Part shown: piece after piece, positions 706 through 53,384 of the stretch
How positions within the stretch are numbered: the first letter of the stretch is position 1
How the letters are laid out: every line of letters starts with the position of its first letter
Source of the DNA: a bacterium
GTDB lineage: Bacteria; Patescibacteriota; Minisyncoccia; UBA6257; JAGOQP01
Reading direction: 5' to 3'
NCBI GenBank assembly: GCA_021814695.1
Contig: JAKAHY010000002.1
Location: 8,920 to 72,919, forward strand
Length of the DNA: 64,000 nt
Program-made: the position numbers and the translations under genes
Notes under the pieces: model-generated
Told to the model about the DNA's origin: nothing
Seen by the model: the letters and a program-made list of their open reading frames with translations, nothing else
Database searches by the model: none

Positions 706-737
706 AAAAATCCCGACTTTCGTCGGGATTTTTTATT
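706..737. terminator. Bidirectional rho-independent terminator between the PilB-like gene (+) and rplT (-)
   Basis: aaaaaaaTCCCGACtttcGTCGGGAttttttat: 7-bp GC stem flanked by an A-run and a T-run. Confidence 0.6.
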
Positions 738-1077: not shown

Positions 1078-1103
1078 AGCGTTTAGTAATTAGTAAATAA
1101 AAA

Positions 1104-1286
1104 TTATAAACTTCCGGGCTTTTTGAAAATTCTTTCCGAAATGGCGCGAGCTGCCGGATTCATTCCTTGCAATCTGTGAATCTGAGTTGAACTCTTTTTT
1201 GAGCGAAAATGGCACTGTGCCATAGTGCGTCTCATTACCTTTCCGTTTTTTGTTACCCTGAATCTGGTTGTAATTGATTTTTTCAT
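1104..1286 (-). CDS. rpmI: 50S ribosomal protein L35
   Basis: 60-aa basic protein between infC and rplT; the RFRVTKNGKVMRR..HFRSKKS block fits bL35. Confidence 0.8.
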   Translation of the reverse strand: MKKSITTRFRVTKNGKVMRRTMAQCHFRSKKSSTQIHRLQGMNPAARAISERIFKKPGSL

Positions 1287-1289
1287 ATT

Positions 1290-1751
1290 CTATTTTCCTT
1301 TCATTATTTGCATTATGAGGCCTCTTCCTCCCGGTCTTATTGTTGTTGTAACCTGATAATCTGCACTGATCATTTTTATAAAATCGTTGAATCTTTTTCT
1401 GGCCCAATCCTGATTGTATTTCTCCCTGCCCCTTAAGGCCATCATTATTTCAACTTTATTTCCTTTCTCAAGAAATTCTTCCGCCTGGAGTGCTCTGATT
1501 TTAAGATCGTTATCGGCAGCTCTTGGAGTTATTCTTACCTGTTTTAACTCTCCGGTTGGTTTGTGCGCACGCTTCTTCTCCTCTTTTCTTTGTTGATATC
1601 GGAATTTATCGTAGCTGATTATTTTTACTACCGGCGGTTTGATATTAGGTGCGATTTCAACCACATCCAGCCCTTTTTCTTCGGCTAGTGCAAGTGCCTC
1701 AGAGAGTTTCATAACGCCCAAATTAGCTCCTGCTTCGTCAACCACGCGCAC
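1290..1751 (-). CDS. infC: Translation initiation factor IF-3; the true start is probably a non-AUG codon (AUU/AUC) some 10-15 codons upstream (to about 1796)
   Basis: VRVVDEAGANLGVM..LALAEEKGLDVVEIAPN..PPVVKI is conserved IF-3 sequence. The upstream in-frame extension ...YVRINQRITASEV continues the IF-3 N-domain, and the codon at 1749-1751 is GTG. Confidence 0.9.
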   Translation of the reverse strand: MRVVDEAGANLGVMKLSEALALAEEKGLDVVEIAPNIKPPVVKIISYDKFRYQQRKEEKKRAHKPTGELKQVRITPRAADNDLKIRALQAEEFLEKGNKVEIMMALRGREKYNQDWARKRFNDFIKMISADYQVTTTIRPGGRGLIMQIMKGK

Positions 1752-1873
1752 TTCTGATGCCGTAATTCTTTGGTTGATTCTGACGTAGTTATCGATGGTG
1801 AGTGGCGTTACTGTTTTTAACGTCCATTAGATTAACACACAAATAAGCCGTTTGCAATACTTTTGCGGCTGAT

Positions 1874-1902
1874 AAAAAAAGCCCACCGGTGTTCTGGTGG
1901 GG
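1874..1902 (-). terminator. Rho-independent terminator of the GC-rich small gene
   Basis: Minus strand CCCACCagaacaccGGTGGGcttttttt. Confidence 0.6.
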
Positions 1903-1930
1903 CGCCTCGTTGGAGGCGGTTGGGAAGCGC

Positions 1931-2152
1931 TTAGCCGCGCTTCGCTTTGGAGGATGCCGAGACCTTGTGAGTCCCGGCGACGGCCACGCCGCGGTTGGCG
2001 GTGGCCAGGTCGGCCTGAGTCCTCCGCTTGGCCGCCCGGTTCGCGTGCTTGACGCTGTGACGGTCCTTGGGCGCGGTCTTGCCGCAGCGCCCGTTGGGGT
2101 GGCGGTTGCCGCCACCCGAAACCCGACAGTGACACAGTTCGCACACGGCCAT
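1931..2152 (-). CDS. Small basic Cys-containing protein (73 aa) encoded by a 65% GC, GC3-rich ORF; resembles ribosomal protein bL28 (GK...SV.H..R..KRR ... V.V.GT.K....SSKAK)
   Basis: Strong SD GGGAGGTG lies 6 nt upstream of the ATG, with its own promoter and terminator. The sequence MAVCELCHC..CGKTAPKDRHSVKHANRAAKRR..GVAVAGTHKVSASSKAKRG fits bL28 loosely. Two other-frame ORFs over the same DNA are GC-rich artefacts. Confidence 0.5.
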   Translation of the reverse strand: MAVCELCHCRVSGGGNRHPNGRCGKTAPKDRHSVKHANRAAKRRTQADLATANRGVAVAGTHKVSASSKAKRG

Positions 2153-2190
2153 ATTACACCTCCCTTGTCGTTTGATTTACCGCTTTTTAT

Positions 2191-2219
2191 AACATAGCAT
2201 AACTAACTACATTTGTCAA
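2191..2219 (-). promoter_or_regulatory. Sigma70-like promoter (TTGACA-17-TATGTT) for the GC-rich small gene
   Basis: Minus strand reads TTGACAaatgtagttagttatgcTATGTT, about 40 nt upstream of the SD/ATG. Confidence 0.45.
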
Positions 2220-2246
2220 TATTTATGGGAAAACAAAATCACCCGC

Positions 2247-2275
2247 AAGGGGTGATCTTATTTTTGTGGAGATGG
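2247..2275. terminator. Terminator hairpin downstream of the GIY-YIG gene
   Basis: ATCACCCgcaaGGGGTGAT flanked by T-runs on both strands. Confidence 0.5.
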
Positions 2276-2290
2276 GAGAGTTGGCTCCGA

Positions 2291-2530
2291 CTAAACTAAA
2301 TGCTTGTTTCTAAAAGCTATTCCCGAACCACTTTTCAGATATTTTTCAAAGTTGATCGCCTGTTCCTTGTTATGAAAAGTGCAGTGCCAAGCAATAATAA
2401 ATGGCGCTCTACTTGAGCTATATTTGGAACCATAACTATTATGTTCCAATAGTCTTTTCTTAATATCAATTGTGATGCCCGTATAGAAACTCCCATCTTT
2501 TAAACTGCGAAGAATATAGACAAAATACAT
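2291..2530 (-). CDS. GIY-YIG nuclease family protein (small, stand-alone)
   Basis: MYFVYILRSLKDGSFYTGITIDIKKRLLEHN matches the GIY-YIG motif arrangement; 79 aa. Confidence 0.8.
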   Translation of the reverse strand: MYFVYILRSLKDGSFYTGITIDIKKRLLEHNSYGSKYSSSRAPFIIAWHCTFHNKEQAINFEKYLKSGSGIAFRNKHLV

Positions 2531-2596
2531 ATTATCTATAATTATATGGCCCTCCTTCGCATAAAGCTACGGAGGACTCACTACTCGCACCATAAA

Positions 2597-2622
2597 ACTC
2601 CCCAGATGGGGAGTTTTATTGC
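2597..2622 (-). terminator. Rho-independent terminator of the tmRNA
   Basis: Minus strand AAAACTCCCCAtctGGGGAGTTTTAT. Confidence 0.55.
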
Positions 2623-2672
2623 AATGCTTCTTGTGCAAGGAGTGCTTGCACTACGAAGCCTTGGCGAAGTAG

Positions 2673-2988
2673 TGGAGATGGCGAGAGTTGAACTCGCGTC
2701 CAGAAAGAGGGATTGAAAGCGTCTACGGGCGTATCTTCTTTTGGAAGCTGATTTGCTTTCTGATTGTCCCTACGGATACGAAAGCGCTTTCCGTGGGTAA
2801 GCCTCAAATATAACACCGGCGATTTCCCCATGAGACATCGGGAGCCGATGGCTTACGCACGAACTAAAAAGTTCTTAAGCGTATGCAAGTGCTACATTTC
2901 TGTTAGCAGATTTGTTTTGGCGGATTTACAAGTCGCCGCTTGACCCGCAACTTTCAAAGAACTCTATCTGTCAAAGCCCAGCATCCCC
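2673..2988 (-). ncRNA. ssrA: tmRNA (SsrA), about 316 nt, encoding the tag ANRNVALAYA*
   Basis: 5' GGGGAUG pairs with 3' CAUCUCC-A and includes the G3·U Ala identity pair. T-arm is GCGAG-TTCAACT-CTCGC. 5' domain reads CUGGGCUUUGACAG. Tag ORF is GCU AAC AGA AAU GUA GCA CUU GCA UAC GCU UAA, followed by the hairpin GAACUuuuuaGUUC. It lies immediately 3' of smpB. Confidence 0.85.
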
Positions 2989-3426
2989 TTAGGCAATATG
3001 TTTTCTTACTTGGCGCTCGGTTTCCCTTTTTTTAATCGTTTCTCTCTTATCCGTTTTCTTCTTGTGAACGCCCAGTCCTATTTCAAGCTTTATTTTACCG
3101 CGCTTGTTATACAGCTTAAGGGGCACCAGAGTCAAGTTTTTGGATGATGCTTGACCGACAAGAGCGATAATTTCCGACTTTTTTGCCAAAAGTCGGCGCG
3201 ATCGGCGAGGATCGAAATCTTTGGGTGTATTTTTCTCCTGGTAGGGGCCAATTGTTGCGCCAACCAGCCAAAGCTGTCCTCCATAAATTTTAACCAACGA
3301 CCCGACAACACTGGCTTTACCGGAGCGGATAGCTTTAGCCTCATGGCCCAAAAGTTCAATTCCGGCATTTAAAGTGTCGGAAATTTCGTAATCAAAATAG
3401 GCTTTTTTGTTTTGGATTGATTCCAT
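2989..3426 (-). CDS. smpB: SsrA-binding protein SmpB
   Basis: YFDYEI.....GIEL.G.E.K......ASV.GS ... C-terminal basic tail; adjacent to the tmRNA. Confidence 0.95.
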   Translation of the reverse strand: MESIQNKKAYFDYEISDTLNAGIELLGHEAKAIRSGKASVVGSLVKIYGGQLWLVGATIGPYQEKNTPKDFDPRRSRRLLAKKSEIIALVGQASSKNLTLVPLKLYNKRGKIKLEIGLGVHKKKTDKRETIKKRETERQVRKHIA

Positions 3427-3470
3427 CTGTTTATTTATGATAGTGCCTTGTGGGATTTTTTTGCAAGCGA

Positions 3471-3481
3471 TGTGATATAAT
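3471..3481 (+). promoter_or_regulatory. Extended -10 promoter TGTGATATAAT, copy 1 of 4 of a shared motif
   Basis: ttgcaagcgaTGTGATATAATgaaacaaataaaaaactATG, nearly identical to the motifs at 5688, 8367 and 52583. Confidence 0.45.
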
Positions 3482-3498
3482 GAAACAAATAAAAAACT

Positions 3499-5643
3499 AT
3501 GAAAAAATCTTCATTAATCGTGGTCATTTTGCTTGTTGTGGCAAGCGTAGGAATGACCGTCATCTTTTCAAATCAAGTGTCGATAAAGGGATTTCTATCG
3601 AGCGTTTATTCTACTGCATCAGGCAGAAATCATATACAGCTGGCAAACGCTCAGTCCTTGGGACAGGGGGTTGTAGTTTTTAAAGCGCAATTTGGCCATT
3701 TGGAAGCAACCGGCCAAGTTGTCTCCGGTATTTCCGGACTAGCGGGGCTGCCGGTGACAAAATTTGTTCCCGACAGAGACCTTTCGGATTCTGAAAAAAA
3801 GCAGGTTGAAGTAAACATCACCGAAGAGAACACCGTTTTCGGATTTATTGTGGCAAAAAACGTTTCATTAGGGCAGGGAATCGGTTTTAACATTCCCCAA
3901 GGAGAAGTTTATAACTACGGTTTTTATGTGAATTCCGACATCCTTCCTCAAGGATGGACATATAACTCTTCTTGCGTAGAGACGGGAGGAAATATTAAAT
4001 TATCTGCCGGCCAACAAAGCGAATGCACGATAGGTTTTTATCTGAAACCAACGCCTGCGCCGGTTACTCCTCCCGCTTCGACGTCCACTCCCGTCTCACC
4101 TCAGGAAGGAGCGTCAGGTACCGTTATTAGTGAAGATTCCGGTTCTGGATCGCTGCAGTTTGTAAAAAATATTTTGGACTTAAGTACGGGGTGGAAAAAC
4201 CCCGGATCGGATAAAATATTGGACGCAAAAATCGTTGAATTATACGGAAAGAAATTTCTTATTGTTTCGACTCAAAACAAACATTTGCTTGTTTACGATG
4301 CTTCAAACCAGTTTTCGCCGGTTCTTTTGAAAGATAATGATTTATCAGGCAGTAACGTGTCGGCGTTTTATCTTGTGGTTTTAGATAATTTCAATTACGT
4401 ATTTGCCTGGGGAGGAAACTCTGCCAACTACGGATCTTTTAAGATTGAACAAGACGGATCTGCGTCTCTGGTAAAAAGTTACAAACCTGACCAATATAGC
4501 GTTACTCAACCGAATTTGGTTTTCGGGTTGTTTAGAGGGTTAGACGGTAAAGCGTATGGATTTGGAGGGAACGGGGGCGATGGATGGCTAACTATTTATG
4601 ACGTGTCCGATCCGGCAAACATCAGCGAAATTGGATCATATCAAGATGGCTTAGTCGGGAATCACTGCGGCAATTATGGTCTGATTGGATTGGACAGGCC
4701 GCTTCAATGGAATACTTCTCAACAAGGGAACAAGCTTTATCTGGTAACTCATGCGGACCAGTGCGTCCAGCGGCTGCATACTTCCGGAGACGCCAGAATT
4801 TATATTTTTGACGTTTCTGATCCAAAAAATCCGCAGCTTTCCCATCAATATGAGCTTTCCGGTTCTTTTAACCACATACCTTCGGACGCGACTAAGGCCG
4901 AACAGACATTTCTTTTTGGCGGGATCGCCGACATTGCCGTTGATTCAAATTCGGGTAAGGTTTTTGATTTTTACAGGACGGTTTTTGATTGGCAGGGGCC
5001 ATCCTGGTCTCAGATAGCAAACATAGTGCATGGTACTTTGTTTAGATACAGAACCGGACTGGTCACTCTTTCACTGCAATCGGACGGTTCTCTAAAAGAA
5101 TTGTCGCGGGCTTTATTGTGCGAACAAAAGGGCCCAATGTATGATGGTGGCGGTCCGCAATATTATCGATGCGGCGACGTGGATGGAAACGACAAAAATA
5201 CCCAAGGCGGATATGATTATTCGGCAAGAAATTCTCAACAAAATTACAACGGAGTTTTTCTCCTCAGTGGGCCGGGAAATAGCGGTCAGGTGGGCTTACT
5301 AAGGAGTGATAATAGTTTTGTTGTCATTCCCGATACCGCCGGAGAGATGACTAAATTTAAGACGGCTATTAAAGATTCATCTTATTATTCGAATATCTAT
5401 AATCCCGCTATCAATGGTGTTGTGACCCAGGTTGACAGTAAAACATTTGCCATCTATCAATTTGATAGTTATTCGTTAAGCGTCGTTAAGGTTTTGTTGT
5501 CGCAATCTCTTGTGGGGGGATCGAAAAATCCCTCTCCTCCAGTGACCGGAGTTGCGCCTTCGGCAAACGTACCACTAACATCACCCGCATTTTCATTTAA
5601 TGCGCTCCTGAACATCTTCAGAAGGATACTTAACAACTACTAA
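3499..5643 (+). CDS. Cell-surface protein, paralog A: N-terminal signal-anchor, P/T-rich linker, LVIVD-like beta-propeller repeats, conserved C-terminal tail
   Basis: Repeats of the type LTIYDVSDPANISEIGSY and IYIFDVSDPKNPQLSHQY; N-terminal TM MKKSSLIVVILLVVASVGMTVIF; C-terminus ...SPAFSFNALLNIFRRILNNY. Confidence 0.8.
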   Translation: MKKSSLIVVILLVVASVGMTVIFSNQVSIKGFLSSVYSTASGRNHIQLANAQSLGQGVVVFKAQFGHLEATGQVVSGISGLAGLPVTKFVPDRDLSDSEKKQVEVNITEENTVFGFIVAKNVSLGQGIGFNIPQGEVYNYGFYVNSDILPQGWTYNSSCVETGGNIKLSAGQQSECTIGFYLKPTPAPVTPPASTSTPVSPQEGASGTVISEDSGSGSLQFVKNILDLSTGWKNPGSDKILDAKIVELYGKKFLIVSTQNKHLLVYDASNQFSPVLLKDNDLSGSNVSAFYLVVLDNFNYVFAWGGNSANYGSFKIEQDGSASLVKSYKPDQYSVTQPNLVFGLFRGLDGKAYGFGGNGGDGWLTIYDVSDPANISEIGSYQDGLVGNHCGNYGLIGLDRPLQWNTSQQGNKLYLVTHADQCVQRLHTSGDARIYIFDVSDPKNPQLSHQYELSGSFNHIPSDATKAEQTFLFGGIADIAVDSNSGKVFDFYRTVFDWQGPSWSQIANIVHGTLFRYRTGLVTLSLQSDGSLKELSRALLCEQKGPMYDGGGPQYYRCGDVDGNDKNTQGGYDYSARNSQQNYNGVFLLSGPGNSGQVGLLRSDNSFVVIPDTAGEMTKFKTAIKDSSYYSNIYNPAINGVVTQVDSKTFAIYQFDSYSLSVVKVLLSQSLVGGSKNPSPPVTGVAPSANVPLTSPAFSFNALLNIFRRILNNY

Positions 5644-5656
5644 AAATTTAAAATAA

Positions 5657-5685
5657 AGCCCCCTGTAAATACAGGGGGCTTTTTG
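5657..5685 (+). terminator. Rho-independent terminator
   Basis: GCCCCCTGtaaataCAGGGGGCttttt. Confidence 0.7.
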
Positions 5686-5687
5686 AA

Positions 5688-5698
5688 TGTGATATAAT
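5688..5698 (+). promoter_or_regulatory. Extended -10 promoter TGTGATATAAT (copy 2)
   Basis: gaaTGTGATATAATgaaacaaATGaaaaaaac. The first ATG (5697) lies inside the -10 box, so the start at 5709 is preferred. Confidence 0.45.
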
Positions 5699-5708
5699 GA
5701 AACAAATG

Positions 5709-8321
5709 AAAAAAACATTACTCATCGGGTTTATTGTGGTCGGCATTGTAAGCTTTTCGGCATTTACCGCGCATGCTCAGTCGGTCAATTATCTTAGTAA
5801 ATTTTTTGCAGATGTCTACGGAGCGTTTTTTGGGAATTCCCAAACGCAAAAAGTTGACGCCCAAACAGTGGGTAATGGAACACTTACTATTCATGCTCAG
5901 ATATGTCAGACGCTCGGGAATTTCGAAAATCCAAGCAGTGCGACCTGTTCTGGTACTCCTCGCGACCCCAATTCTACGGAGTCTCCGTTATTTGTTTATG
6001 ATGTCCAGCGCATAGTTGGGAATGGAGCGAGCGCTCAAGTTACCACAGTTCTTTCAGGTATCGGTCCCGGACAAAGTTATTCGTTACCGGCGAATACTCC
6101 AAACGCTAGTAATAATAACAGAGATGAGTACGTGATTGTGTTTAAGGGGGCACCGACAAATTATTTGTACGTGAGACAAGGAGGAAATTTTGATTTGCCC
6201 TATAAATTTTCAATTTCTTCCGGACAAAATACTCAAGTAAATATTCCTTATGTTATTTATACGGCGATTGAATCAACGGGTCCTGTTGGCACTACTGTTA
6301 CCGCCGATATTGTTGATGGCAATGGAAATTTTGTCAGAGCGCTGACGGCTTCAGAAATTCAATCGGTATCCTTTGACATCCAGCATTCGGTTCCGGCCAC
6401 CGGAGGATATGTCGGATCGCATGCGAACAATTTTGATACTCAAGTTTCTTCGGGAAAATTAAATACTTCATATCAGCTTGCGACCTATGTCCATTCCGGT
6501 TCAATTTTGACAAATATTAAGCCACCATCCGGTTACGTAGTCAGATCAATTAAGCCGGGAACATATTTTGATCCTACTGATGACGTTACTATTCATTTTA
6601 CCAAGTCTCCTGTTTCGTCTCAGGTTCAAAAAGTTGATCAAATGCTCTATGTTCCTAATGGAATTAGCTATGTAAAAAAAATAGCTCAAACATATTCGGA
6701 CAATGAATACAAATATTCGAATCTTGACGTTGATTTATTTGCTTATTATGGAAACAATAATCGTCCTTTTCCCTTGAACTGGACAGTTGCCAAATATTCG
6801 GGAGTTCCTTATTTGTTTATGAATGGAGCAGGAAAGATAGTTATTTATAATATTTCCGATCCTAAAAATCCCAAACAAGTTAGTGAATATGTTCTTTCCG
6901 GTTTGGAAAAATTTAATCAATACAAAGATCGTCAGGGAAATACTTATGGACAGTGTTCTCCTAACCAAGAAGGTACTCATGATTTTATAACTGGAGCCGG
7001 TAAAGTTTTTGCTCTTGATGATTCCCCTTATCTTTTGATTGACATTCAGAGACCGGGTGGGCCAGGCCCTGGAGGGACGGCAGTTTTGTCCTTAGATCCT
7101 TCAACTATGGCCATAACCGCCTATCCTCAATGGACCGAGTGTAACAGTGGTCAAGATACTCCCGGAACCGCTTTCGGAATGTATAAAGGAAGTGACGGAA
7201 ATACTTATTTTATTTCCCAATTCCCGAATAATGCATATGATACGGGTGGAGTAGATACCGGGAATATTGGTATTTACACAATCAATTCTGCTGGTATTGC
7301 CAATAAAGTTGTCGTTCTCAGCGGAATGTCCGGGATTGCTCCGAGTTTGGATTATTCTAATGGAACAATCTCTGTTGTTTCCGTTGGAAGTAAAAAATAT
7401 CTTATTGGTAATGGAAAATCATCTATCGCAAACATAAATTCGACCAGTGCACCAATTTATATTTACGATATTTCCAATCCAAAAAATATAATCAAAATCA
7501 ATCAACAGATCACGGTGTCTACGTCTGGGTCCGGCAGATTAAAAATTGACGAACAAGCCAATCGTATGTATGTTCAGTCATCCATTCCAAATCCTGCCGC
7601 AACATCAACTTCGTACACCATCCCCAAAACATTACCTATTTGGCAGGTATATGACTTGAGTGTTTTGCCCAGTACTCCAAAATTAATTGCTACTTATAAC
7701 AAACCAACCGACCTACTTAATTCAAGTCAAGTGAATGCTGATTTTTCTCAAATTACCAAGAGATTAAATATTGCATCGTCAGGTAATCTTGTGGATATAA
7801 ATAATTCTTCTTTCACTTACGGCGCCTACGGATATTCTTCTTCACTCCAGTTGATAAATGTTTCAAATAATTTAGCTTATATATCACTGTATACAAACGG
7901 AAAAAACCCTTGGGATACGATTGCCAATCAAGCCGGAGTAACGGACGGAAGCGAATACGGGACCAATGCTATTCAATTTATAGTTGACGTGTCCAATGCG
8001 TCCAGTCCCAAAATACTTGGAATGATATTCGGGCATACGGAATATTCTGCTTACGGACTTTCCGCCGGCGGATGGTTTGATGTTCCTCTTTACGGAAGTA
8101 TCTATAACTATAACGGATATATTTACCGAGCCAATTTCCGCATCGCTGATGTATGGAAATTGGGGAATCCTCCGGCCCAAAGTACGGGAGGTGCTGGAAG
8201 TGGGGCTGGTGCGAGCGGCACTGGAACTACCGAAGGAGGATCTGCGCCATCATCAGTTCAATCTCCATTTTCTTTCAGTTCTCTTTTGAAGATATTCCAG
8301 AGAGTGTTTAATAATCAATAA
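5709..8321 (+). CDS. Cell-surface protein, paralog B: cleavable signal peptide, LVIVD-like repeats, conserved C-terminal tail (the ORF track starts at 5697)
   Basis: Signal peptide MKKTLLIGFIVVGIVSFSAFTAHA|QS; repeats IVIYNISDPKNPKQVSEY and IYIYDISNPKNIIKI; G/S/T-rich linker; C-terminus ...SPFSFSSLLKIFQRVFNNQ. Confidence 0.8.
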   Translation, partial: KKTLLIGFIVVGIVSFSAFTAHAQSVNYLSKFFADVYGAFFGNSQTQKVDAQTVGNGTLTIHAQICQTLGNFENPSSATCSGTPRDPNSTESPLFVYDVQRIVGNGASAQVTTVLSGIGPGQSYSLPANTPNASNNNRDEYVIVFKGAPTNYLYVRQGGNFDLPYKFSISSGQNTQVNIPYVIYTAIESTGPVGTTVTADIVDGNGNFVRALTASEIQSVSFDIQHSVPATGGYVGSHANNFDTQVSSGKLNTSYQLATYVHSGSILTNIKPPSGYVVRSIKPGTYFDPTDDVTIHFTKSPVSSQVQKVDQMLYVPNGISYVKKIAQTYSDNEYKYSNLDVDLFAYYGNNNRPFPLNWTVAKYSGVPYLFMNGAGKIVIYNISDPKNPKQVSEYVLSGLEKFNQYKDRQGNTYGQCSPNQEGTHDFITGAGKVFALDDSPYLLIDIQRPGGPGPGGTAVLSLDPSTMAITAYPQWTECNSGQDTPGTAFGMYKGSDGNTYFISQFPNNAYDTGGVDTGNIGIYTINSAGIANKVVVLSGMSGIAPSLDYSNGTISVVSVGSKKYLIGNGKSSIANINSTSAPIYIYDISNPKNIIKINQQITVSTSGSGRLKIDEQANRMYVQSSIPNPAATSTSYTIPKTLPIWQVYDLSVLPSTPKLIATYNKPTDLLNSSQVNADFSQITKRLNIASSGNLVDINNSSFTYGAYGYSSSLQLINVSNNLAYISLYTNGKNPWDTIANQAGVTDGSEYGTNAIQFIVDVSNASSPKILGMIFGHTEYSAYGLSAGGWFDVPLYGSIYNYNGYIYRANFRIADVWKLGNPPAQSTGGAGSGAGASGTGTTEGGSAPSSVQSPFSFSSLLKIFQRVFNNQ

Positions 8322-8333
8322 TAATTTGAAACA

Positions 8334-8359
8334 ATCCCCCTAGCTGGGGGATTTTTTTG
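8334..8359 (+). terminator. Rho-independent terminator
   Basis: ATCCCCCtagctGGGGGATttttttt. Confidence 0.7.
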
Positions 8360-8366
8360 CAAGCAA

Positions 8367-8377
8367 TGTGATATAAT
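8367..8377 (+). promoter_or_regulatory. Extended -10 promoter TGTGATATAAT (copy 3)
   Basis: tttttttgcaagcaaTGTGATATAATaaaacaaataaaaataaccATG. Confidence 0.45.
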
Positions 8378-8396
8378 AAAACAAATAAAAATAACC

Positions 8397-10580
8397 ATGA
8401 AAAAATATTCATTAATTGTGATTATCTTACTTGTTGTTGCAAGTATAGGGATTACCGCTATCTTTTCAAGTCAAGTGTCGATAACCGGATTTCTTTTGAG
8501 CGTTTACTCAACTGTTTCGGGGAGCAATCAAATACAGAGAGTAAATGCACAAACGACAGGCCAAGGAACCATATTATTCCAAGGCCAATTCGGTCATCTT
8601 GAATCGACCGGAAAGGTCACTACCGGAATTTCGGGCTTATCCGGACTTCCGGTGATGAAATTTGTTAAAGACCGTGACCTATCTAGCGATGAAAAAAATC
8701 AGATTAGAGTGGATGTTATTGAACATAACACTCCTTTTGAATTTGTAGTTGCAAAAAATATTTCGCTTGGAGAGGGTGTTAATTTTAATATTCCCGTAGG
8801 TTCGACATATAGATATAGTTTTTATGTTCACCCCGACTCGATTCCCTCCGGATGGGTTTATTATTCCGGTTGTTTAGAGACCGATGGGAATGTTTCGGTA
8901 CTGGCCGGTCAGCAAAGTACTTGCAGCATAGGATTTTATTTAAAGCCCGAAACAATCTCACCCCCTCCGGTCACATCAACATCTACGATCACGTCTACTC
9001 CTTCGGTAGGTGTTTCGGGAACTGTTGTCGGTGAAGATGCCAGCGCAGGATCGTTGCAGTTTGTAAAAAACGTTTTGGATTTAAGCTCACAAAGAAAGGG
9101 CATTATTTATGGAGTTTTGGACGCAAGAACCGTTAATTTGTATGGAAAAAATCTTCTGATAGTTGCTAGAGGTGGAGCTTACTCTGCTACCACTCCAACC
9201 TGGCATATGCTTGTTTATGATATAACCGATCCGCTTGCCCCGGTTCTTTTGAAGGATAATGATATGTCCGGAAGTGGCATAATCTATAGTTCTCCAATGA
9301 CCGGTTTGGCAGTGCTTGATGGCTTTAATTATGTATTTGTCCGTGGAAATGTCGGTTACGGTTCGTTTAAAATTAATCAGGACGGAACTGCGTCTCTTGT
9401 GAAAAGCTATAAATATTCTGAAGTTCAGCAGATACAGACAGATTTAATCAGGGGATTGTTCAACGGTCTGGATGGAAATATATACGGCTACGGAGGGTTT
9501 GTGCAGGATGGAGGACTCGTGCTTTATAACGTTTCCGATCCCGCTAATATTATTCAAGTTGGAACGTATACTAATGGTCTTGAACCAGCGATTGCCATCT
9601 ATGGACAAATTGGATTGAATCGCCAGAGCACTTGGGGCGTTGTTAAAGAAGGAGGCAAACTTTATCTTATTGCTCATGCGGACCAGTTGGTTCTGCGCCT
9701 TCATACGGATTATGATGGAATGATTTATGTTTTTGATGTGTCCAATCCGGCAAGTCCGCAGCTTTCACATATCTATAAAATGTCCAGCTCCTTTAATCAC
9801 CTTCCTTCCGATATGACTTCGTATGAGAAGATGTTTCTTTACGGAGGAGAAGCTAATATATCGGTTGATCCAATATCAAATAGAGTATTTGATTTTTACA
9901 GAACGGTTTTTGATTGGCAGGGACCCAATCAGCTTAAGATAAAAGACATTCCTAAAGGAGCCTTGTTTCGTTATAGAAATGGAATAGCCGTTCTTTCAAT
10001 AGGAATCGATGGTTCTTTGAAATCAAGTTCCAGTAACATATTATTGTGCGAAAGAATAGCCATTCAAGATAATGGGACGTCAGGCGAAGATAAATGTGAT
10101 ACAAAGAGTCCCGAAACGGTTGGGGGATATTATAGTTCCAGTCTTTATGGAAACAGGAATCCTCAAGAAAATTATAACGGAGTATTTCTTCTTGGCGACG
10201 TGAATAATGTCGGACATGTAGGGCTGTTAAAAAGCGATGGTAGTTTTGTTATCATACCCGATCCAACCGGAGAAATGCTTAAATTCAAATCTGTCTTGGC
10301 TGACCCGTCGTATTATTCCGATCCTGGTTTTCGTTCGTCTCCAATCAATGGCATTGTCACTCAAGTTGATAGCAAAACCTTTGCAATATTTCAGATTGAT
10401 AATTATTCCATAAGTGTTACAAAGCTAAATCTATCACAATCCATAACGAGCGTAACACAAAAATCTTCGCCACCTACCACAAATGCCCCTAGTTCATTAA
10501 ATACATCATCTCCTACTCAGACTCCATTTTCCTTCAGCTCGCTCCTGAGAATATTTCAGAGGGTGTTCAATAGTCAGTAA
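8397..10580 (+). CDS. Cell-surface protein, paralog C (close paralog of A)
   Basis: N-terminal 230 aa nearly collinear with paralog A; repeats VLYNVSDPANIIQVGTY and IYVFDVSNPASPQLSHIY; C-terminus ...TPFSFSSLLRIFQRVFNSQ. Confidence 0.8.
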   Translation: MKKYSLIVIILLVVASIGITAIFSSQVSITGFLLSVYSTVSGSNQIQRVNAQTTGQGTILFQGQFGHLESTGKVTTGISGLSGLPVMKFVKDRDLSSDEKNQIRVDVIEHNTPFEFVVAKNISLGEGVNFNIPVGSTYRYSFYVHPDSIPSGWVYYSGCLETDGNVSVLAGQQSTCSIGFYLKPETISPPPVTSTSTITSTPSVGVSGTVVGEDASAGSLQFVKNVLDLSSQRKGIIYGVLDARTVNLYGKNLLIVARGGAYSATTPTWHMLVYDITDPLAPVLLKDNDMSGSGIIYSSPMTGLAVLDGFNYVFVRGNVGYGSFKINQDGTASLVKSYKYSEVQQIQTDLIRGLFNGLDGNIYGYGGFVQDGGLVLYNVSDPANIIQVGTYTNGLEPAIAIYGQIGLNRQSTWGVVKEGGKLYLIAHADQLVLRLHTDYDGMIYVFDVSNPASPQLSHIYKMSSSFNHLPSDMTSYEKMFLYGGEANISVDPISNRVFDFYRTVFDWQGPNQLKIKDIPKGALFRYRNGIAVLSIGIDGSLKSSSSNILLCERIAIQDNGTSGEDKCDTKSPETVGGYYSSSLYGNRNPQENYNGVFLLGDVNNVGHVGLLKSDGSFVIIPDPTGEMLKFKSVLADPSYYSDPGFRSSPINGIVTQVDSKTFAIFQIDNYSISVTKLNLSQSITSVTQKSSPPTTNAPSSLNTSSPTQTPFSFSSLLRIFQRVFNSQ

Positions 10581-10598
10581 AAATTAAAAATAAAATTG

Positions 10599-10630
10599 CT
10601 CCCATTTTAACGGATGGGGGCTGTTTTTTT
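10599..10630 (+). terminator. Rho-independent terminator
   Basis: CTCCCATtttaacggATGGGGGctgttttttt. Confidence 0.65.
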
Positions 10631-10668
10631 ATCTTTAAATCTCAAAAAAATTGTGATAAAGTAACTTA

Positions 10669-13600
10669 ATGTTGAGAAATCTTAAACACTTTAATCCGCC
10701 GGAAATTGAGGAAAAAGTTTTACAGCTTTGGAAAGAAAAAGGGATATTTCAAAAAACACTCAAAGTTCCAAAAGGAAAAAAGGCCCTGCCTACCGGCAGG
10801 CAGGCAAAAATATTTCGGTTTTGGGAAGGTCCACCGACAGCCAATGGCCGTCCCGGAATTCATCATATTTTAGCCCGTTCTTTTAAGGACGTTGTTTTGC
10901 GTTTTAAAACGATGCAAGGGTATACGGTTCCCCGTAAGGGTGGTTGGGATACTCATGGATTGCCCGTTGAAATCCAGGTTGAAAAGCAGCTCGGATTTAA
11001 AACAAAAAAAGATATAGAAGATTACGGAATAGCCGCATTCAACCAAAAATGTAAAGAATCAGTCTGGCTTTATCAAAGCGAATGGGAAAAATTGACCGAA
11101 CGCATGGGTTTTTGGCTGGATTTGAAAAATCCTTATGTCACATACCACAAAGATTACATAGAGTCGCTTTGGTGGATCATCAAACAAGTTTGGGATAAAG
11201 GGTTGATGTATCAAGGGCATAAAGTGGTTCCTTGGTGTACTCGCTGCGGGACAGCTCTTTCTTCCCATGAATTGGCTCAAGGATACAAAGAGCTTACCGA
11301 TACTTCTGTTTACATAAAATTTAAACTTCTTCCAAAACAAAAAATCGGTTCTTTTATAACCGATGATAAAACATACATCTTATCCTGGACGACGACTCCT
11401 TGGACTTTGCCCGGAAACGTCGCTTTGGCAGTCGGAAATAAAATCAAATATATTGCGGCAAAAATCGGAGGAGAGACTTTTATTATTGCGGAAGATCTTG
11501 CCGGATCGGTTTTGGGATCGGAAAATCATAAAGTTATCAATGAATTTAAAGGCGAGTCGATTTCAGGGAAAGAATACGCCCCACTTTTTGAAATTGCGGC
11601 ATTAAAAAAACCGGAATCGTACAAGGTATATCCGGCTAAATTTGTGACAACCACCGATGGAACGGGGGTGGTGCACACGGCCGTAATGTACGGAGAGGAC
11701 GATTATAACCTGGGAAAAGAAGTCGGACTTCCTCAGCATCATACGGTTACCGAACAAGGAACTTTCACAAAAGACGTTAAAGGATTTGAAGGGATGTACG
11801 TCAAAGCCAAGGAGACCGAGGATAAGATACTAGATTATCTAAAGAAAAATAATTTCCTTTTGCAAACACAGGCTTATACCCATGAATATCCTCATTGCTG
11901 GAGATGTGGAACTCCGCTTTTGTATTACGCGCGCAGTTCATGGTTTGTAGCGATGTCGAAACTGAAAGATAATCTGATCGAAAGCAACCAGGGAACCAAC
12001 TGGGTTCCGGCACATATCAAAGAGGGCAGATATGGAGAATGGCTCTCCGAAATTAAAGATTGGAATTTTTCACGGGAAAGATATTGGGGCACCCCACTGC
12101 CGATCTGGACGTGCGAGAATTGTGGAAACCATAAAGCTGTTGGAAGTTATAAAGAGCTTTCGGAACATCTTCCTTCTAGTACCAACAGATATATTCTTGT
12201 CCGTCATGGAGAAGCGGGGCAAAATGTTTCCAATATAATCAACTGCGACCCCAAAGATAAGGATAAATACCCGTTAACAACCAATGGAATAATCCAGGCG
12301 AAGAGAACTTCCCTGAGCCTCAAGAAAAAAATAAAAAAAATAGACGCGATTATCTCGTCGGATTTTATTCGGACAAAGGAAACCGCAAAAATTATCGGCG
12401 ATGAATTTGGAATAAAGAAAATAATCACCGATCCGCTTTTGAGGGAAGTTAACATGGGAGATTTTAACGGGGACAATGTTTCTCGTTACCACGAGTACTT
12501 TTCTTCGCTTGAAGAAAAATTTATGAAACGGACCCCTAACGGAGAAAACCTCAGAGATCTGGCCGCAAGAAGCTACGATTTTATACAAAAATGTGAAAAA
12601 AAATACAGCGGGAAAACTATTGTTGTGGTAGGGCATGAATATCCGCTGTGGATGGCGGAGACCGTTCTTTCTGGATGGAGTCAGGAAGAATCGGTGTCGG
12701 AAAAAGAAAAAAGAGGTCCCGATTTTATAGAAGTCGGAGGATTTGATTCCGTTACTTTTGTTCCGGCATCAAGAGATGAACAGGGAATCTGTGATTATCA
12801 TAAGCCATATGTGGATTCAATCAGCATCCCTTGCGAAAAATGCGGAAAAAAGATGAATCGAGTTAAAGAAGTTGCCGACGTATGGTTTGATTCGGGGTCA
12901 ATGCCATTTGCCCAAGATCATTATCCTTTTGAGAAGGGTGATAAAGTCGGGAAAGCGCCCCAATCGTTTCCGGCCGATTATATCTGTGAGGCAGTCGATC
13001 AGACCCGCGGGTGGTTTTACACTCTTATGGCCGTCTCTACATTATTGGATTATGAAACGCCGTATAAAAACGTCGTTTGCCTAGGGCATATAAACGACAA
13101 GCATGGACAGAAAATGTCCAAATCAAAAGGGAACATTGTTGATCCATGGATGATAATAGATAAATATGGCATTGATGCCGTTAGGTGGTATTTTTACACC
13201 GTTAATGCTCCGGGGGAGCCGAAGAATTTTGACGAGAATGAGGTTGCTAAAGTACTGAGAAAATTCAGCATGACTCTTTATAATTCGTTCGCGTTTTTGG
13301 CGCTTTATGGAAAACAGAAGGTAAGTATCCAAAAGAAACCTTCATCGCCGAATATTTTGGACAGGTGGATTTTGGCAAGGCTAAATCAAACAACTGTCGG
13401 AGTTTCGGACAAAATGGACGCATATGATTTCTTGGCTACCGGACAAATAATAGAATCGTTTATTGACGATCTTTCCAGATGGTACATTCGCCGATCGAGA
13501 AAGAGATTCCAAAAAATTTCGGATAAATCGGATTGGGGTACGGCGACCGGTGTTTTGGCGTATGTTTTGGCCGAATTTTCAAAAGTGATCGCTCCCTTTA

Positions 13601-14223
13601 CTCCATTTTTCGCCGAAGCTCTTTACAGATCCATAGCCGAATTTTGTTCGTTTAGCGCAAAAGAATCCGTTCATCTCGAATCATGGCCGGAGGGCAGGGT
13701 TTTTAATGACGATGCGGTTATGTCGGAAGCCATGAAACAGATAAGAGACTACGCCAGTGCTGTTTTGGCAAAAAGAGCCGAAGTTGGAATCAAAGTGCGG
13801 CAGCCTTTGAGCTTGTTGAAAATAAGAAGCATTAAGTCTAAAGAAAAAGACTCTAAACAATTATTAGAAGTGTTAAGGGATGAAGTTAACGTCAAAGAAG
13901 TTGTGATTGATCCAAAAATAGAAAATGAATTTGAGTTGGATATCAACATCACTCCGGAACTTAAAGCCGAAGGAATTTTGAGGGAAATAGCCCGGACAAT
14001 TCAGGAATTGAGACAAAGTTCGGCATGTGTTCCCAAGGATAAAATAGAAGTTCGCATTTCCGGACCTGCCGACATTGAAGCGGTGGTCAAAAACGGACAA
14101 GCCACGCTTTGCCAATACGTTAACGCCAAAAATATTCTTTTCGGTAAGAGCGGTAAATTTGATTCCGAAATTGAAACCAAAATTGATTCGTCAAAAATTT
14201 GGATAGGTTTAAGAAAAATATAA
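10669..14223 (+). CDS. ileS: Isoleucyl-tRNA synthetase (1184 aa) with an inserted histidine-phosphatase-like domain
   Basis: HIGH region PTANGRPGIHHILARS; KMSKS motif QKMSKSKGN; CP1/editing region; CxxC..CxxC zinc motifs (CENCG ... CEKCG); about 205 extra residues between the zinc knuckles. Confidence 0.95.
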   Translation: MLRNLKHFNPPEIEEKVLQLWKEKGIFQKTLKVPKGKKALPTGRQAKIFRFWEGPPTANGRPGIHHILARSFKDVVLRFKTMQGYTVPRKGGWDTHGLPVEIQVEKQLGFKTKKDIEDYGIAAFNQKCKESVWLYQSEWEKLTERMGFWLDLKNPYVTYHKDYIESLWWIIKQVWDKGLMYQGHKVVPWCTRCGTALSSHELAQGYKELTDTSVYIKFKLLPKQKIGSFITDDKTYILSWTTTPWTLPGNVALAVGNKIKYIAAKIGGETFIIAEDLAGSVLGSENHKVINEFKGESISGKEYAPLFEIAALKKPESYKVYPAKFVTTTDGTGVVHTAVMYGEDDYNLGKEVGLPQHHTVTEQGTFTKDVKGFEGMYVKAKETEDKILDYLKKNNFLLQTQAYTHEYPHCWRCGTPLLYYARSSWFVAMSKLKDNLIESNQGTNWVPAHIKEGRYGEWLSEIKDWNFSRERYWGTPLPIWTCENCGNHKAVGSYKELSEHLPSSTNRYILVRHGEAGQNVSNIINCDPKDKDKYPLTTNGIIQAKRTSLSLKKKIKKIDAIISSDFIRTKETAKIIGDEFGIKKIITDPLLREVNMGDFNGDNVSRYHEYFSSLEEKFMKRTPNGENLRDLAARSYDFIQKCEKKYSGKTIVVVGHEYPLWMAETVLSGWSQEESVSEKEKRGPDFIEVGGFDSVTFVPASRDEQGICDYHKPYVDSISIPCEKCGKKMNRVKEVADVWFDSGSMPFAQDHYPFEKGDKVGKAPQSFPADYICEAVDQTRGWFYTLMAVSTLLDYETPYKNVVCLGHINDKHGQKMSKSKGNIVDPWMIIDKYGIDAVRWYFYTVNAPGEPKNFDENEVAKVLRKFSMTLYNSFAFLALYGKQKVSIQKKPSSPNILDRWILARLNQTTVGVSDKMDAYDFLATGQIIESFIDDLSRWYIRRSRKRFQKISDKSDWGTATGVLAYVLAEFSKVIAPFTPFFAEALYRSIAEFCSFSAKESVHLESWPEGRVFNDDAVMSEAMKQIRDYASAVLAKRAEVGIKVRQPLSLLKIRSIKSKEKDSKQLLEVLRDEVNVKEVVIDPKIENEFELDINITPELKAEGILREIARTIQELRQSSACVPKDKIEVRISGPADIEAVVKNGQATLCQYVNAKNILFGKSGKFDSEIETKIDSSKIWIGLRKI
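10785..10804. repeat. 20-nt GC-rich near-perfect palindrome CCTGCCTACCGGCAGGCAGG inside ileS (encodes ..ALPTGRQAK..)
   Basis: Inverted-repeat arms CCTGCCTA/CAGGCAGG around CCGG; the same palindrome recurs at 36984..37003 in csaA. Confidence 0.6.
12175..12790 (+). other. Inserted histidine phosphatase (phosphoglycerate-mutase-like, branch 1) domain within IleRS
   Basis: YILVRHGEAGQN (RHG catalytic motif with N at +7) ... VVGHEYPLW (second His); inserted between WTCENCG and YHKPYVDSISIPCEKCG. Confidence 0.6.
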
Positions 14224-18979: not shown

Positions 18980-19041
18980 TTCCCCGTTCGAGGCCTCTTG
19001 TGATACAATATAAGCGTTATTAATAACGTTTTTTATTTATT

Positions 19042-27587: not shown

Positions 27588-28133
27588 TTATTTAGTAATT
27601 GAATTTAAAATATCATTCACGTCGCTTGTAGTAGATGACGTCGAATCGGATGGATTTGCCGAATTTATCTTTGTTTGCTCCCCTTTAATCACGGACTCGC
27701 TTAAATGAGCGGGGGTGTTGGCAGCTACCTCTTTAAGGGCTGACGCGCTTTCGCTCGCGTCTTGTTCAAAGCGTTGTATATGTGAAAGTTGAACGTCTAT
27801 TGATGCGTTTATCATATCGGCCTCCGCTACAACTCCGCGCTGGTTTAATCCGGGCAAAAATAGGGGAGAAAGCTGGGAGGTGGCCAAATAAATTATTATA
27901 AATAAGCCGACGGTTGCAGTTGCAACGGCTAATCCGCGCCACACATTTTGGAACAAAGAAGTGAATGAAATCGTTCTCAAATCTGCGGTAGCAGCGGCAA
28001 ATGACGGGCTTTCCTGGATAGTGGGTGTAAATGGAGTAGCCAGAATTATATTTTTGGAACGCTCCGAATACGCCTTATCGGGCGTTATGGTTCTGAATTG
28101 TTCCAATATTTTTATAATTTGATTATGCTTCAT
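27588..28133 (-). CDS. Putative anti-sigma factor (single-pass membrane protein)
   Basis: Translationally coupled to the ECF sigma (overlap 28123-28133); central TM GLAVATATVGLFIIIYLA. Confidence 0.55.
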   Translation of the reverse strand: MKHNQIIKILEQFRTITPDKAYSERSKNIILATPFTPTIQESPSFAAATADLRTISFTSLFQNVWRGLAVATATVGLFIIIYLATSQLSPLFLPGLNQRGVVAEADMINASIDVQLSHIQRFEQDASESASALKEVAANTPAHLSESVIKGEQTKINSANPSDSTSSTTSDVNDILNSITK

Positions 28134-28683
28134 ATTTTTCCAGTTCCTTTTTCAGTTGCCGGAGCGCCCTGAATTGCAGCACGCGTACGGCGCCATGGTT
28201 TTTTCCGGTGATTTTAGCTATTTCTTTGGGAGATAGTCCTTCTACGAACCTCATAAGTATAATTTCCTGATAATCCGATGGTAGTCGCTTGATTGTTTTG
28301 TAAACCGTTTCCACCTCTAATTTATTGGAGAGCATTTCCTCGCTGCTTTTTGTGGTCAGTGACAAAACTTCATCGGGGATATCATCAATGTTGGTTATTT
28401 GTTTTTTTGTCCTATAAAAATCAATGACCTTATTTCTGGCAATTTTATATAACCAACTTGCCATAGGAAGGCCCTGATCCTGAAACATCTCAATGTTCTG
28501 CCAAGCACTTAAAAATACCTGATGGGTGAGGTCCTCAGCTTCCTCACGCTGGCTTACTTTTAGGAATATAAACCGAAATAGTTTCGGTTGATATTTGTCG
28601 TAAAGCAAGCCAAAAGCCGAGGCCTCACCCCGGATAGCGCGCTCTAGTAAGTCTCTTTCGTTGTCTATGCGCTCATCTTTCAT
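28123..28683 (-). CDS. ECF (sigma-70 family, group 4) RNA polymerase sigma factor
   Basis: Region 2 LTHQVFLSAWQN..F.....WLYKIARNKVIDFYR and region 4 HTH EIAKITGKNHGAVRV. Confidence 0.9.
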   Translation of the reverse strand: MKDERIDNERDLLERAIRGEASAFGLLYDKYQPKLFRFIFLKVSQREEAEDLTHQVFLSAWQNIEMFQDQGLPMASWLYKIARNKVIDFYRTKKQITNIDDIPDEVLSLTTKSSEEMLSNKLEVETVYKTIKRLPSDYQEIILMRFVEGLSPKEIAKITGKNHGAVRVLQFRALRQLKKELEKYEA

Positions 28684-28846
28684 AATAAACGAATAAGAAT
28701 GCCTTGTGTTTCAGTTGTTTTAGCAGGCATTCTCGTAGTTTTAAGCCCCCTTTTCTGGGGGCATACCACATTATGGCATATATCCTTGAGAAAGGGAAGG
28801 AATATTCAAAGGATGGCTACTTTAGTAACCGAACGGAATAGTAGTA

Positions 28847-52479: not shown

Positions 52480-52515
52480 GCGCAAAGCCTTGCTGCGGGA
52501 GTCAGTATACCAAGG

Positions 52516-52550
52516 GTGGCGGGAATTTTTCCGCCACTTGTTTTTATCGG
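52516..52550 (+). terminator. Rho-independent terminator
   Basis: GTGGCGGgaatttttCCGCCACttgtttttat. Confidence 0.65.
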
Positions 52551-52582
52551 ATGAATTTTGACCTAAGCTATTAAGGCAATAA

Positions 52583-52593
52583 TGTGATATAAT
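52583..52593 (+). promoter_or_regulatory. Extended -10 promoter TGTGATATAAT (copy 4)
   Basis: aaggcaataaTGTGATATAATaataactt... 33 nt upstream of the ATG at 52626. Confidence 0.4.
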
Positions 52594-52625
52594 AATAACT
52601 TAGGATAATAATTAAAAAAACAAAC

Positions 52626-53384
52626 ATGAGAAACAAATTATTTGTATTATTCGTAGCAGTGGCTCTTGTTTTCGGTGGAATATACTATGCTTTCGCTCAA
52701 GAAAGCGGAGGAGCAAAAGTCCAACTACAAGGACAAGTCGAGACCCAAAACAGTGGGGGAGAAGTCCAGGTTCAGGTCCAATCCCGGAACGAGGTACAAA
52801 GTGGGAATGACAGCGAAAAGAATTCTACCGGCACCGAGTCCGAGATGAACCAGAAAAACGAAATTCAAGGCCAGAATGAGATTAAGGGAGAAAATGAAAT
52901 TGAAGCAACGAGCTCACAGGAAGGAACGAGCAGCGATCAGGAAGTCGAAAAAACCGAGCCGGTAAAAATGGCCGAGCAAACCAGAAGCGAAGTCGCTAAC
53001 GCAGTTCAGGAAATGCTTAGCGTTGCCGACAGAGCCGGAGGAATCGGAAGCGAAATCAAAGTTATTGCACAAGCCCAAAATGAAAATCAGCTGAAAATAG
53101 AAAACAGCATAAAAAATATTGAAGGGCGAAACGGCTTCGTTAAATTTTTGATAGGTCCGGACTACAATGAAGTTGATAATGCCCAAAAGGCCTTGAGCCA
53201 AAACAAGGAACAAATTACCCAACTCAACCAAATTAAGGCTAAAATTACCAATCAGGCCGATCAGCAGGTGTTGGCTAACCAAATCTCCATTCTTGAAAAA
53301 GCCAACGTGAATATTGAAACGTCTCTGAATCAATCGCAAGGAGGTTTTAGTCTTTTTGGCTGGCTGTTTAGGATAGTTAAATAA
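52626..53384 (+). CDS. Secreted low-complexity (Q/N/E/S-rich) hypothetical protein
   Basis: Signal peptide MRNKLFVLFVAVALVFGGIYYAFA|QE; repeated NEIQGQNEIKGENEIE; C-terminus GGFSLFGWLFRIVK. Confidence 0.65.
   Translation: MRNKLFVLFVAVALVFGGIYYAFAQESGGAKVQLQGQVETQNSGGEVQVQVQSRNEVQSGNDSEKNSTGTESEMNQKNEIQGQNEIKGENEIEATSSQEGTSSDQEVEKTEPVKMAEQTRSEVANAVQEMLSVADRAGGIGSEIKVIAQAQNENQLKIENSIKNIEGRNGFVKFLIGPDYNEVDNAQKALSQNKEQITQLNQIKAKITNQADQQVLANQISILEKANVNIETSLNQSQGGFSLFGWLFRIVK

Follow-up and report, generated by a model that had tools for sequence, protein, structure and literature searches.

Four identical copies of an 11-nt box, TGTGATATAAT, lie in the 64-kb stretch of DNA analysed here (the window), and we assign a probability of about 80% to the reading that they would be strong promoters read by the primary (housekeeping) sigma factor, working independently of a -35 element and of any dedicated regulator, with three of the copies having arisen by duplication and the one at 52583 independently. 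To all appearances they are real promoters of a kind already known. The first-pass annotation had proposed either a small co-regulated surface regulon, possibly under an ECF sigma factor encoded nearby, or a promoter cassette duplicated together with its genes; our analysis leaves the regulon and ECF control without support and supports the duplication. The earlier view is thereby corrected in one respect, namely that identical promoter boxes are here no sign of a regulon or of ECF control.

The exact box was found at 3471-3481, 5688-5698, 8367-8377 and 52583-52593, always on the + strand, as annotated, and with up to one mismatch allowed it occurs at 6 sites of the window against 1.6 expected, a count reached in none of 100 shuffles. 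Each of the ORFs downstream of the four exact sites (genes 1 to 4, in order of position) starts with an N-terminal signal or transmembrane segment, in agreement with the annotation of the boxes as preceding secreted-protein genes. All four copies are intergenic and in sense orientation, 7-32 nt 5' of start codons (7, 17, 19 and 32 nt from the end of the box to the ATG over the four genes), and sites 2, 3 and 4 directly follow terminator hairpins, while site 1 follows a relic only. This arrangement, together with the 28-fold enrichment of the motif class in intergenic DNA and the conservation of the box in two related loci, L006 and L007, makes it scarcely conceivable that the boxes are chance A/T-rich strings devoid of promoter function, with transcription coming from elsewhere, for example by read-through from upstream.

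Matched letter by letter, TGTGATATAAT corresponds in full to the extended -10 consensus T-17R-16T-15G-14 n T-12ATAAT-7 of primary sigma factors. The -10 hexamer TATAAT is matched 6/6 at four of four sites, each time preceded by T-17 G-16 T-15 G-14 and one base (TGTG-A-TATAAT); the element is defined by T-15 G-14 one base 5' of the hexamer, with T-17 R-16 as an optional part (PMC6212719). No usable -35 was detected at any of the four sites, where at 15-19 bp spacing TTGACA was matched in no more than 2-3/6 positions (2/6 upstream of gene 4), and a two-hexamer promoter scanner called none of them; at sites 2 and 3 the -35 position falls within the terminator hairpin of the preceding gene. An element of the form T-17R-16T-15G-14 n TATAAT is read by sigma domain 3 and bypasses the -35 contact (PMC6212719), and TRTG is common in Firmicutes, with the TSS centred 7 bp past the -10 (PMC12641261). 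In the mechanism that we propose, sigma domain 3 would read TGTG and domain 2 would read TATAAT, and therefore the -35 contact would not be needed; transcription would begin ~7 nt 3' of the box and each gene would be transcribed as a monocistronic unit with an intrinsic terminator on either side. What the boxes share would then be the form of the "best possible generic promoter", probably one that keeps the expression of abundant envelope proteins high and constitutive. The letters TGTGA are also the consensus half-site of CRP, whose full site is the inverted repeat TGTGA-N6-TCACA, and on that ground a CRP/FNR-type half-site overlapping the -10 might be considered. However, at all four sites the right half agrees with TCACA at 6-bp spacing in only 1/5 positions, and the extended -10 by itself accounts fully for TGTG at -17 to -14, so that we give a CRP/FNR site almost no credence and keep to the primary-sigma promoter.

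Boxes of this type are widespread in the window. Counting both strands, 5,291 intergenic bases contain 15 copies of TRTGNTANNNT and 58,709 coding bases contain 6, a density of 2.84 versus 0.10 per kb that corresponds to the 28-fold enrichment, and TGNTANNNT has 32 intergenic versus 86 coding occurrences in the window. A near-identical box, TGTGATAAAGT (10652..10662, + strand), ends 6 nt before the ATG (10669) of the housekeeping gene IleRS and is conserved in L006, where the IleRS promoter consists of TTGTGATAAAGT followed by 6 nt and the ATG. Another, TGTGATACAAT (18999..19009, + strand), lies upstream of the 811-aa gene at 19042, whose product would be a cytoplasmic PEP-utilising-enzyme-like protein, an assignment made from its N-terminal sequence only. 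TRTGnTAnnnT-type boxes also precede further genes for non-secreted products, at 24330 (- strand), 29234, 32150, 35779, 43054, 49129 and 50343. The caveat that had accompanied the annotation, that the motif could simply be how promoters generally look in this organism, is thus, as far as sequence goes, essentially borne out by the intergenic enrichment and by the boxes before IleRS and other unrelated genes.

From 19 other candidate promoters of the window a column consensus was derived, T-R-T-G-(A/T)-T-A-T-A-A-T, which agrees with the same element, although both this consensus and the matrix built on it are partly circular because the rule by which these promoters were picked rewards TG and TATAAT; the intergenic-versus-coding enrichment is not circular. 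Under this partly circular matrix the probability of an exact TGTGATATAAT is ~0.8% per promoter, so that a further exact copy is nothing unusual among the few dozen transcription units that the window contains. In 64 other Patescibacteria loci (368,647 bases) the exact box occurs 6 times versus 0.67 expected, all six in promoter position and before diverse genes (with one for which no ORF was found downstream); TRTGnTATAAT and TRTGnTAnnnT were counted 27 and 130 times in these loci. We also scanned metagenomes with a 20-nt version of the motif, ATGTGATATAATN{1,3}AACAAATR, which gave 112 matches; the 80 loci inspected came from unrelated organisms, many of them in gut metagenomes, with the motif before unrelated genes, and none of these 80 encoded an FSF..LL tail. 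All that can be read from this metagenome scan is how common the string is as a promoter sequence.

Genes 1 to 3 are arranged in tandem. The first extended -10 (3471..3481, + strand) is followed by a leader at 3482-3498, of which ~10 nt would be transcribed, and by gene 1 (3499..5643, + strand), which encodes a 714-aa secreted LVIVD/beta-propeller-like protein with the C-terminal tail FSFNALLNIFRRILNNY. Its terminator, a hairpin of 12 bp (7 GC) with a T-run (5655..5687, + strand), directly adjoins the second promoter (5688..5698, + strand), whose TATAAT at 5693-5698 ends 7 nt before the ATG of gene 2 (5706..8321, + strand), encoding 871 aa with the N-terminal layout of the first paralog and the C-terminal tail FSFSSLLKIFQRVFNNQ. 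The terminator hairpin of gene 2 with TTTTTTTGCAAGCAA (8333..8366, + strand) is in turn followed by the third promoter (8367..8377, + strand), a leader at 8378-8396 and gene 3 (8397..10580, + strand), encoding 727 aa with the C-terminal tail FSFSSLLRIFQRVFNSQ. The mechanical ORF start of gene 2, at 5697, lies inside TATAAT, and the true start is most likely ATG 5706 (MKKTLL...), in agreement with the public gene call of 871 aa. All three products had been described as LVIVD proteins, which holds for genes 1 and 3, the only ones with Pfam LVIVD matches (E=2.5e-6 and 1.7e-4); the gene 2 protein has no match in Pfam or NCBIfam and is a distant paralog, ~24% identical to protein 1, while proteins 1 and 3 are 54% identical.

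For these three tandem paralogs the duplication of a promoter cassette together with the genes is supported by a nearly identical 26-nt block and by half a terminator shared between sites 1 and 3. The block, ATGTGATATAATRAAACAAATRAAAA, fits at 3470, 5687 and 8366 with 0 mismatches and is 24-25/26 identical among the three promoters; in the flanks, identity is 47-61% over the 50 nt upstream and 57-82% over the first 120 nt of coding sequence. Two of the copies had also been noted to share upstream sequence, and indeed GGGATTTTTTTGCAAGCRA stands immediately 5' of sites 1 and 3, where the terminator tail TTTTTTTGCAAGCRA is duplicated. The same two sites have TGGGGGATTTTTTTGCAAGCRA in common, which at site 3 forms the 3' arm and T-tail of the gene 2 terminator. 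Its counterpart at site 1 is a terminator relic, TGGGATTTTTTTGCAAGCGA (3' arm and T-tail; 3451..3470, + strand), which is homologous to 8346-8366 and is a mark of duplication, not a -35; the 5' arm is missing there because the upstream gene, smpB, is divergent. On this comparison the shared TGGGGGATTTTTTTGCAAGCRA is the footprint of a duplicated terminator-promoter-gene unit: tandem duplication would have carried a piece of the upstream terminator along, and the 26-nt promoter/initiation block would then have been kept nearly invariant.

Two processes could have kept the tandem copies identical, purifying selection on the one hand and gene conversion or recent homogenisation on the other. Gene conversion would account for the contrast between a block with 24-25/26 identity and proteins 1 and 2 with only 24%, for the presence of the block in three genes in tandem within 7 kb, and for a C-terminal tail region more similar than the sequence preceding it (49/63 vs 56/130 between genes 2 and 3). 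It fits less well with a block that is very short and has sharp ends on both sides, the adjoining signal-peptide coding sequence of genes 1 and 2 being at background (74/129), and with the finding that a different organism, the closer relative L007, whose protein is ~50% identical, keeps almost the same promoter and leader, which points to selection. L007 retains TGTGATATAATaaaaacaaatagaaacttATG, and because it also retains the terminator and TGTGATATAATaaaaacaaatagaaacttATGaaaaaa, the promoter and initiation region seem to be under constraint in this paralog family; moreover, the 15 nt 3' of the -10 (RAAACAAATRAAAAA) are conserved in the paralogs and in L007 beyond the needs of a -10 element. 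In L006, which is syntenic (smpB, three paralogs, then IleRS), the paralogs are preceded by TTGTGATATAAT, TCTGATACAAT and TCTGGTATAAT and their leaders are different. For the near-invariance of the trio's promoters selection thus appears likelier than gene conversion, which we consider unlikely and which would alter only the reason why the copies remain identical, not their nature.

The fourth gene stands apart from this array. An intrinsic terminator-like hairpin with a T-run (52514..52545, + strand), belonging to the upstream DEAD-box helicase gene, isolates it as its own transcription unit. Its extended -10, TGTG-A-TATAAT (52583..52593, + strand), is followed by an A/T-rich discriminator and a predicted ~25-nt leader (52594..52625, + strand) with a putative TSS near 52600, and in this segment there is no SD at functional distance and no significant structure (z=+0.3). 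Gene 4 itself (52626..53384, + strand) encodes 252 aa comprising a signal peptide, a Q/E/N-rich variable region and a conserved C-terminal domain that ends in an invariant FSLFGW tail. No family model for it was found in Pfam and NCBIfam. Its 103 detectable homologs bear the labels Candidatus Paceibacterota, Pacebacteria, Campbellbacteria and Patescibacteria group, and its loci from the genome collection are mostly labelled as Patescibacteria or Parcubacteria-group MAGs, the family being widespread in Paceibacteria/Patescibacteria. These labels place the window in a CPR/Patescibacteria bacterium, with which its type IV pilus genes and small-genome content are in keeping.

A promoter and leader consensus common to all four genes had been proposed, and it has to be restricted to the three tandem sites, since ATGTGATATAATRAAACAAATRAAAA finds no match at 52582 even with 3 mismatches allowed. 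The similarity described among the A-rich leaders likewise stands for the three paralogs, which share the 26-nt block, and does not extend to site 4, which shares only AATGTGATATAATAA (~15 nt) with site 3, the resemblance beyond it being A/T richness. In the closest orthologs of gene 4 (56-59% identical) TATAAT is kept and the TGTG extension is lost, so the exact box at 52583 is not a conserved signature that would tie gene 4 to the tandem paralogs. A box of the TGnTAnnnT type lies 30-60 nt upstream in most of 62 more distant orthologs, of which two carry the exact 11-mer. The fourth copy is probably an independent match to the consensus.

These observations bear directly on the proposed surface-protein regulon, in which AATGTGATATAATRA would be the target of a specific regulator, or of an alternative or ECF sigma factor, for four secreted proteins. 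Its appeal lies in the distribution of the box, since within 84 kb (the window plus 10 kb on each side) the exact copies are these four only and all of them precede genes for secreted proteins, which end in similar, related tails (FSFxxLLxIFxR and FSLFGWLFR), and in the presence of an ECF sigma operon inside the window, where the ECF-type sigma gene previously reported nearby was confirmed at 28123-28683 on the - strand. ECF promoters have a -35 "AAC" and a -10 "CGT" (or GTC) some 16-17 nt apart, as in the TGAAAC-N16-CGTA of B. subtilis SigW promoters. In the 150 nt upstream of each of the four genes no AAC-N14-19-CGT/GTC was found, and control by the ECF sigma factor is therefore not supported. 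GAAAC-N15-17-CGT occurs in the window about as often as expected (7 vs 5.5), and its sole intergenic match is at the ECF gene itself, upstream of which a candidate ECF-type promoter, TGAAAC-N16-CGTT, was located at 28689-28712 (- strand). The box is instead the extended -10 consensus of the primary sigma factor, generic in this genome and present in near-identical form before IleRS and gene 19042; the exact 11-mer stands before unrelated genes in other Patescibacteria, the L006 paralogs have variant boxes, and the gene 4 orthologs lack the TGTG extension.

The site suggested for an upstream regulator or sigma factor, TTGCAAGC, was rejected both as a -35 and as a regulator site. It lies 9 nt from TATAAT, which is the wrong spacing, it is absent from sites 2 and 4 as well as from L006 and L007, and it is explained without a regulator because it is part of the duplicated terminator tail. 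Taken together, we judge a dedicated regulon to be very improbable, with some room left for a functional grouping of the four genes since the exact box is confined to them within the 84 kb, and retain generic promoters of the primary sigma factor as the explanation of the four boxes.

The absence of an obvious SD at the four genes, also noted earlier, is true and at the same time nothing special. SD-like 4-mers at -18 to -4 were found in 9/70 ORFs of the window versus 6.0 in shuffles and 7.8 in random genomic 15-mers, and from this chance level across 70 ORFs we infer that SD is absent genome-wide. The four leaders are A-rich and show no significant structure, with fold z-scores from -0.7 to +0.3. 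An Rfam scan of the window at gathering score detected nothing in them, and found only tmRNA and 8 tRNAs. Neither the primary sigma gene nor the 16S rRNA 3' end lies in the window. In at least 8 genes (5706, 10669, 24330 on the - strand, 29234, 34023, 35779, 43054 and 61383) the -10 hexamer ends 6-7 nt before the ATG, and because of this distance the TSS would coincide with the start codon, so that these genes are predicted to give leaderless transcripts. Of the four genes under study, gene 5706 would be leaderless, 3499 and 8397 would have a leader of ~10-12 nt and 52626 one of ~25 nt. Where transcription starts, which transcripts are leaderless, how strong the promoters are and which sigma factor they use are all predictions made from sequence.

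The C-terminal tails of the trio (FSFxxLLxIFxR) and of the gene 4 family (FSLFGWLFK/R) are related and conserved across species. A Pfam/NCBIfam search of the tails returned no family, and a search of the literature found no C-terminal sorting signal of this type described. A speculative proposal, which we regard as doubtful, is that RAAACAAATRAAAAA might act as a translation-initiation enhancer or regulator site that sets the expression of a Paceibacteria-specific envelope module, composed of the LVIVD-like trio and the FSLFGW family, whose proteins would share the previously undescribed tail FS[FL]xx[LW][LF][KR]x[FL] as a sorting or anchoring signal.

With generic promoters as the preferred reading, the window provides a clean in silico picture of expression signals in an uncultured Paceibacteria genome, consisting of -35-less TRTGnTATAAT promoters, frequent predicted leaderless transcripts and SD motifs at chance level, which may guide the annotation of start codons and operons in CPR genomes. 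Four envelope proteins also stand out from it as likely to be highly and constitutively expressed.

Several features of this picture have counterparts in known systems. Leaderless mRNAs have been reported for Deinococcus and Actinobacteria, and those of Mycobacterium tuberculosis were reportedly mapped genome-wide by Cortes et al. in 2013 (cited in PMC12641261). The -10-to-ATG geometry of such mRNAs is matched by gene 5706 and at least 7 other genes of the window, whereas among the four genes only 5706 has this predicted leaderless geometry. Translation initiation independent of SD, with weak or absent use of the anti-SD, is known from Bacteroidota. In a subgroup of Parcubacteria the anti-SD motif is frequently lost (PMC9297842), and the A-rich, unstructured leaders without SD and the SD-like motifs at chance level described here are of the same kind. 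In contrast to the promoters recognised by ECF factors such as SigW of B. subtilis, the four sites combine TATAAT with TGTG and have neither an AAC/CGT pair nor a -35, likeness to ECF promoters being confined to the candidate at 28689-28712 (- strand) before the ECF sigma gene. Extended -10 promoters ("TGn", or a -16 region "TRTGn") are said to have been described by Voskuil and Chambliss in 1998 (cited in PMC6212719 and PMC12641261). The four boxes share with sigma-A promoters of B. subtilis such as sinP3, and with galP1-type promoters of E. coli, the same T-17G-16T-15G-14, one base and TATAAT, and the same want of a recognisable -35, and in those bacteria too such promoters lie just upstream of genes; the class likewise serves many genes of this genome. 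Two differences stand out: the host here is an uncultured member of the Paceibacteria (CPR), for which we can only infer recognition by its sigma factor, and in this window the extended -10 style looks more like the rule than like a minority class.

In the window, the -10 hexamer ends only 6-7 nt before the ATG at no fewer than eight genes (starts at 5706, 10669, 24330 on the reverse strand, 29234, 34023, 35779, 43054 and 61383), a spacing that suggests frequent leaderless mRNAs in this Patescibacteria genome. Before start codons, SD-like motifs are about as frequent as chance would give (9/70 observed vs 6-8 expected). In the three tandem genes encoding secreted LVIVD-like proteins (the trio), the leaders of paralogs 1 and 3 (3489-3498 and 8385-8396) read ATAAAAAAC and ATAAAAATA and align with the start of paralog 2, ATGAAAAAAAC (5706-5714), while the true ATGAAAAAA of paralogs 1 and 3 stands 10-12 nt downstream of these strings. 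This looks like the remnant of a leaderless start in an ancestor, after which the start region underwent a small duplication.

Upstream of the orthologs of gene 4, which encodes a secreted protein of 252 amino acids, AGGTCG was found in 10 of 62 regions vs 0.2 in shuffles, and the shorter AGGTC in 15 of 62 vs 1.2 (loci L012-L075). In many of these orthologs the motif follows the -10 by 3-9 nt, which places it at or close to the predicted TSS, with the ATG 27-54 nt further on; gene 4 of the window carries only ttAGGATAat at this position (52607-52616). The ECF sigma gene (28123-28683, reverse strand) is directly preceded by TGAAAC-N16-CGTT (28689-28712, reverse strand), a candidate for a typical autoregulatory ECF-type promoter; only ~4 nt separate its CGTT from the annotated ATG, which puts a query over the start codon or the TSS geometry.

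The surroundings of the trio were compared with locus L006, from a relative found in another metagenome (JGI 3300036761), whose positions 1-13657 show the same gene order as 700-11000 of the window: L20, IF3, smpB, three tandem genes for tail-bearing surface proteins and IleRS. Because this order is kept in L006, we infer that the trio is an old and stable feature of this lineage. In a 5.8-billion-protein index, however, only four members of the LVIVD-like family could be detected. Adjoining smpB (2989-3426, reverse strand) is a tmRNA gene (2670-2988, reverse strand; Rfam, 114.6 bits) with an unusual tag peptide predicted by ARAGORN, EAYPRKALSYP*, which could stem from a wrongly placed resume codon or be a tag peculiar to this lineage. 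The IleRS-like class I tRNA synthetase (10669-14223, forward strand; 1184 aa) carries tRNA-synt_1, Anticodon_1 and DUF5915 domains, and its catalytic-domain match is split in two by an inserted histidine-phosphatase domain (PF00300, His_Phos_1, E=4e-28, aa 509-673); precomputed Pfam annotation repeats the order tRNA-synt_1/His_Phos_1/tRNA-synt_1 for the IleRS-like gene on a contig of another assembly.

Similar short C-terminal tails were also observed on two unrelated families of secreted proteins, encoded at 5584-5643, 8262-8321, 10521-10580 and 53340-53384 in the window and at 7600-7666, 9860-9923 and 12150-12214 in L006. The LVIVD-like trio and its relatives end in (P/T)FSF(N/S/E)(A/S)LL(N/K/R)IF(R/Q/K)R...., and the 252-aa family in GFSLFGW(L/M)F(K/R)xF, invariant across 23 aligned homologs. 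For the tails of either family, no matching model exists in Pfam or NCBIfam and no counterpart was found in the literature. They may serve this lineage as a C-terminal anchor or sorting signal of its own.
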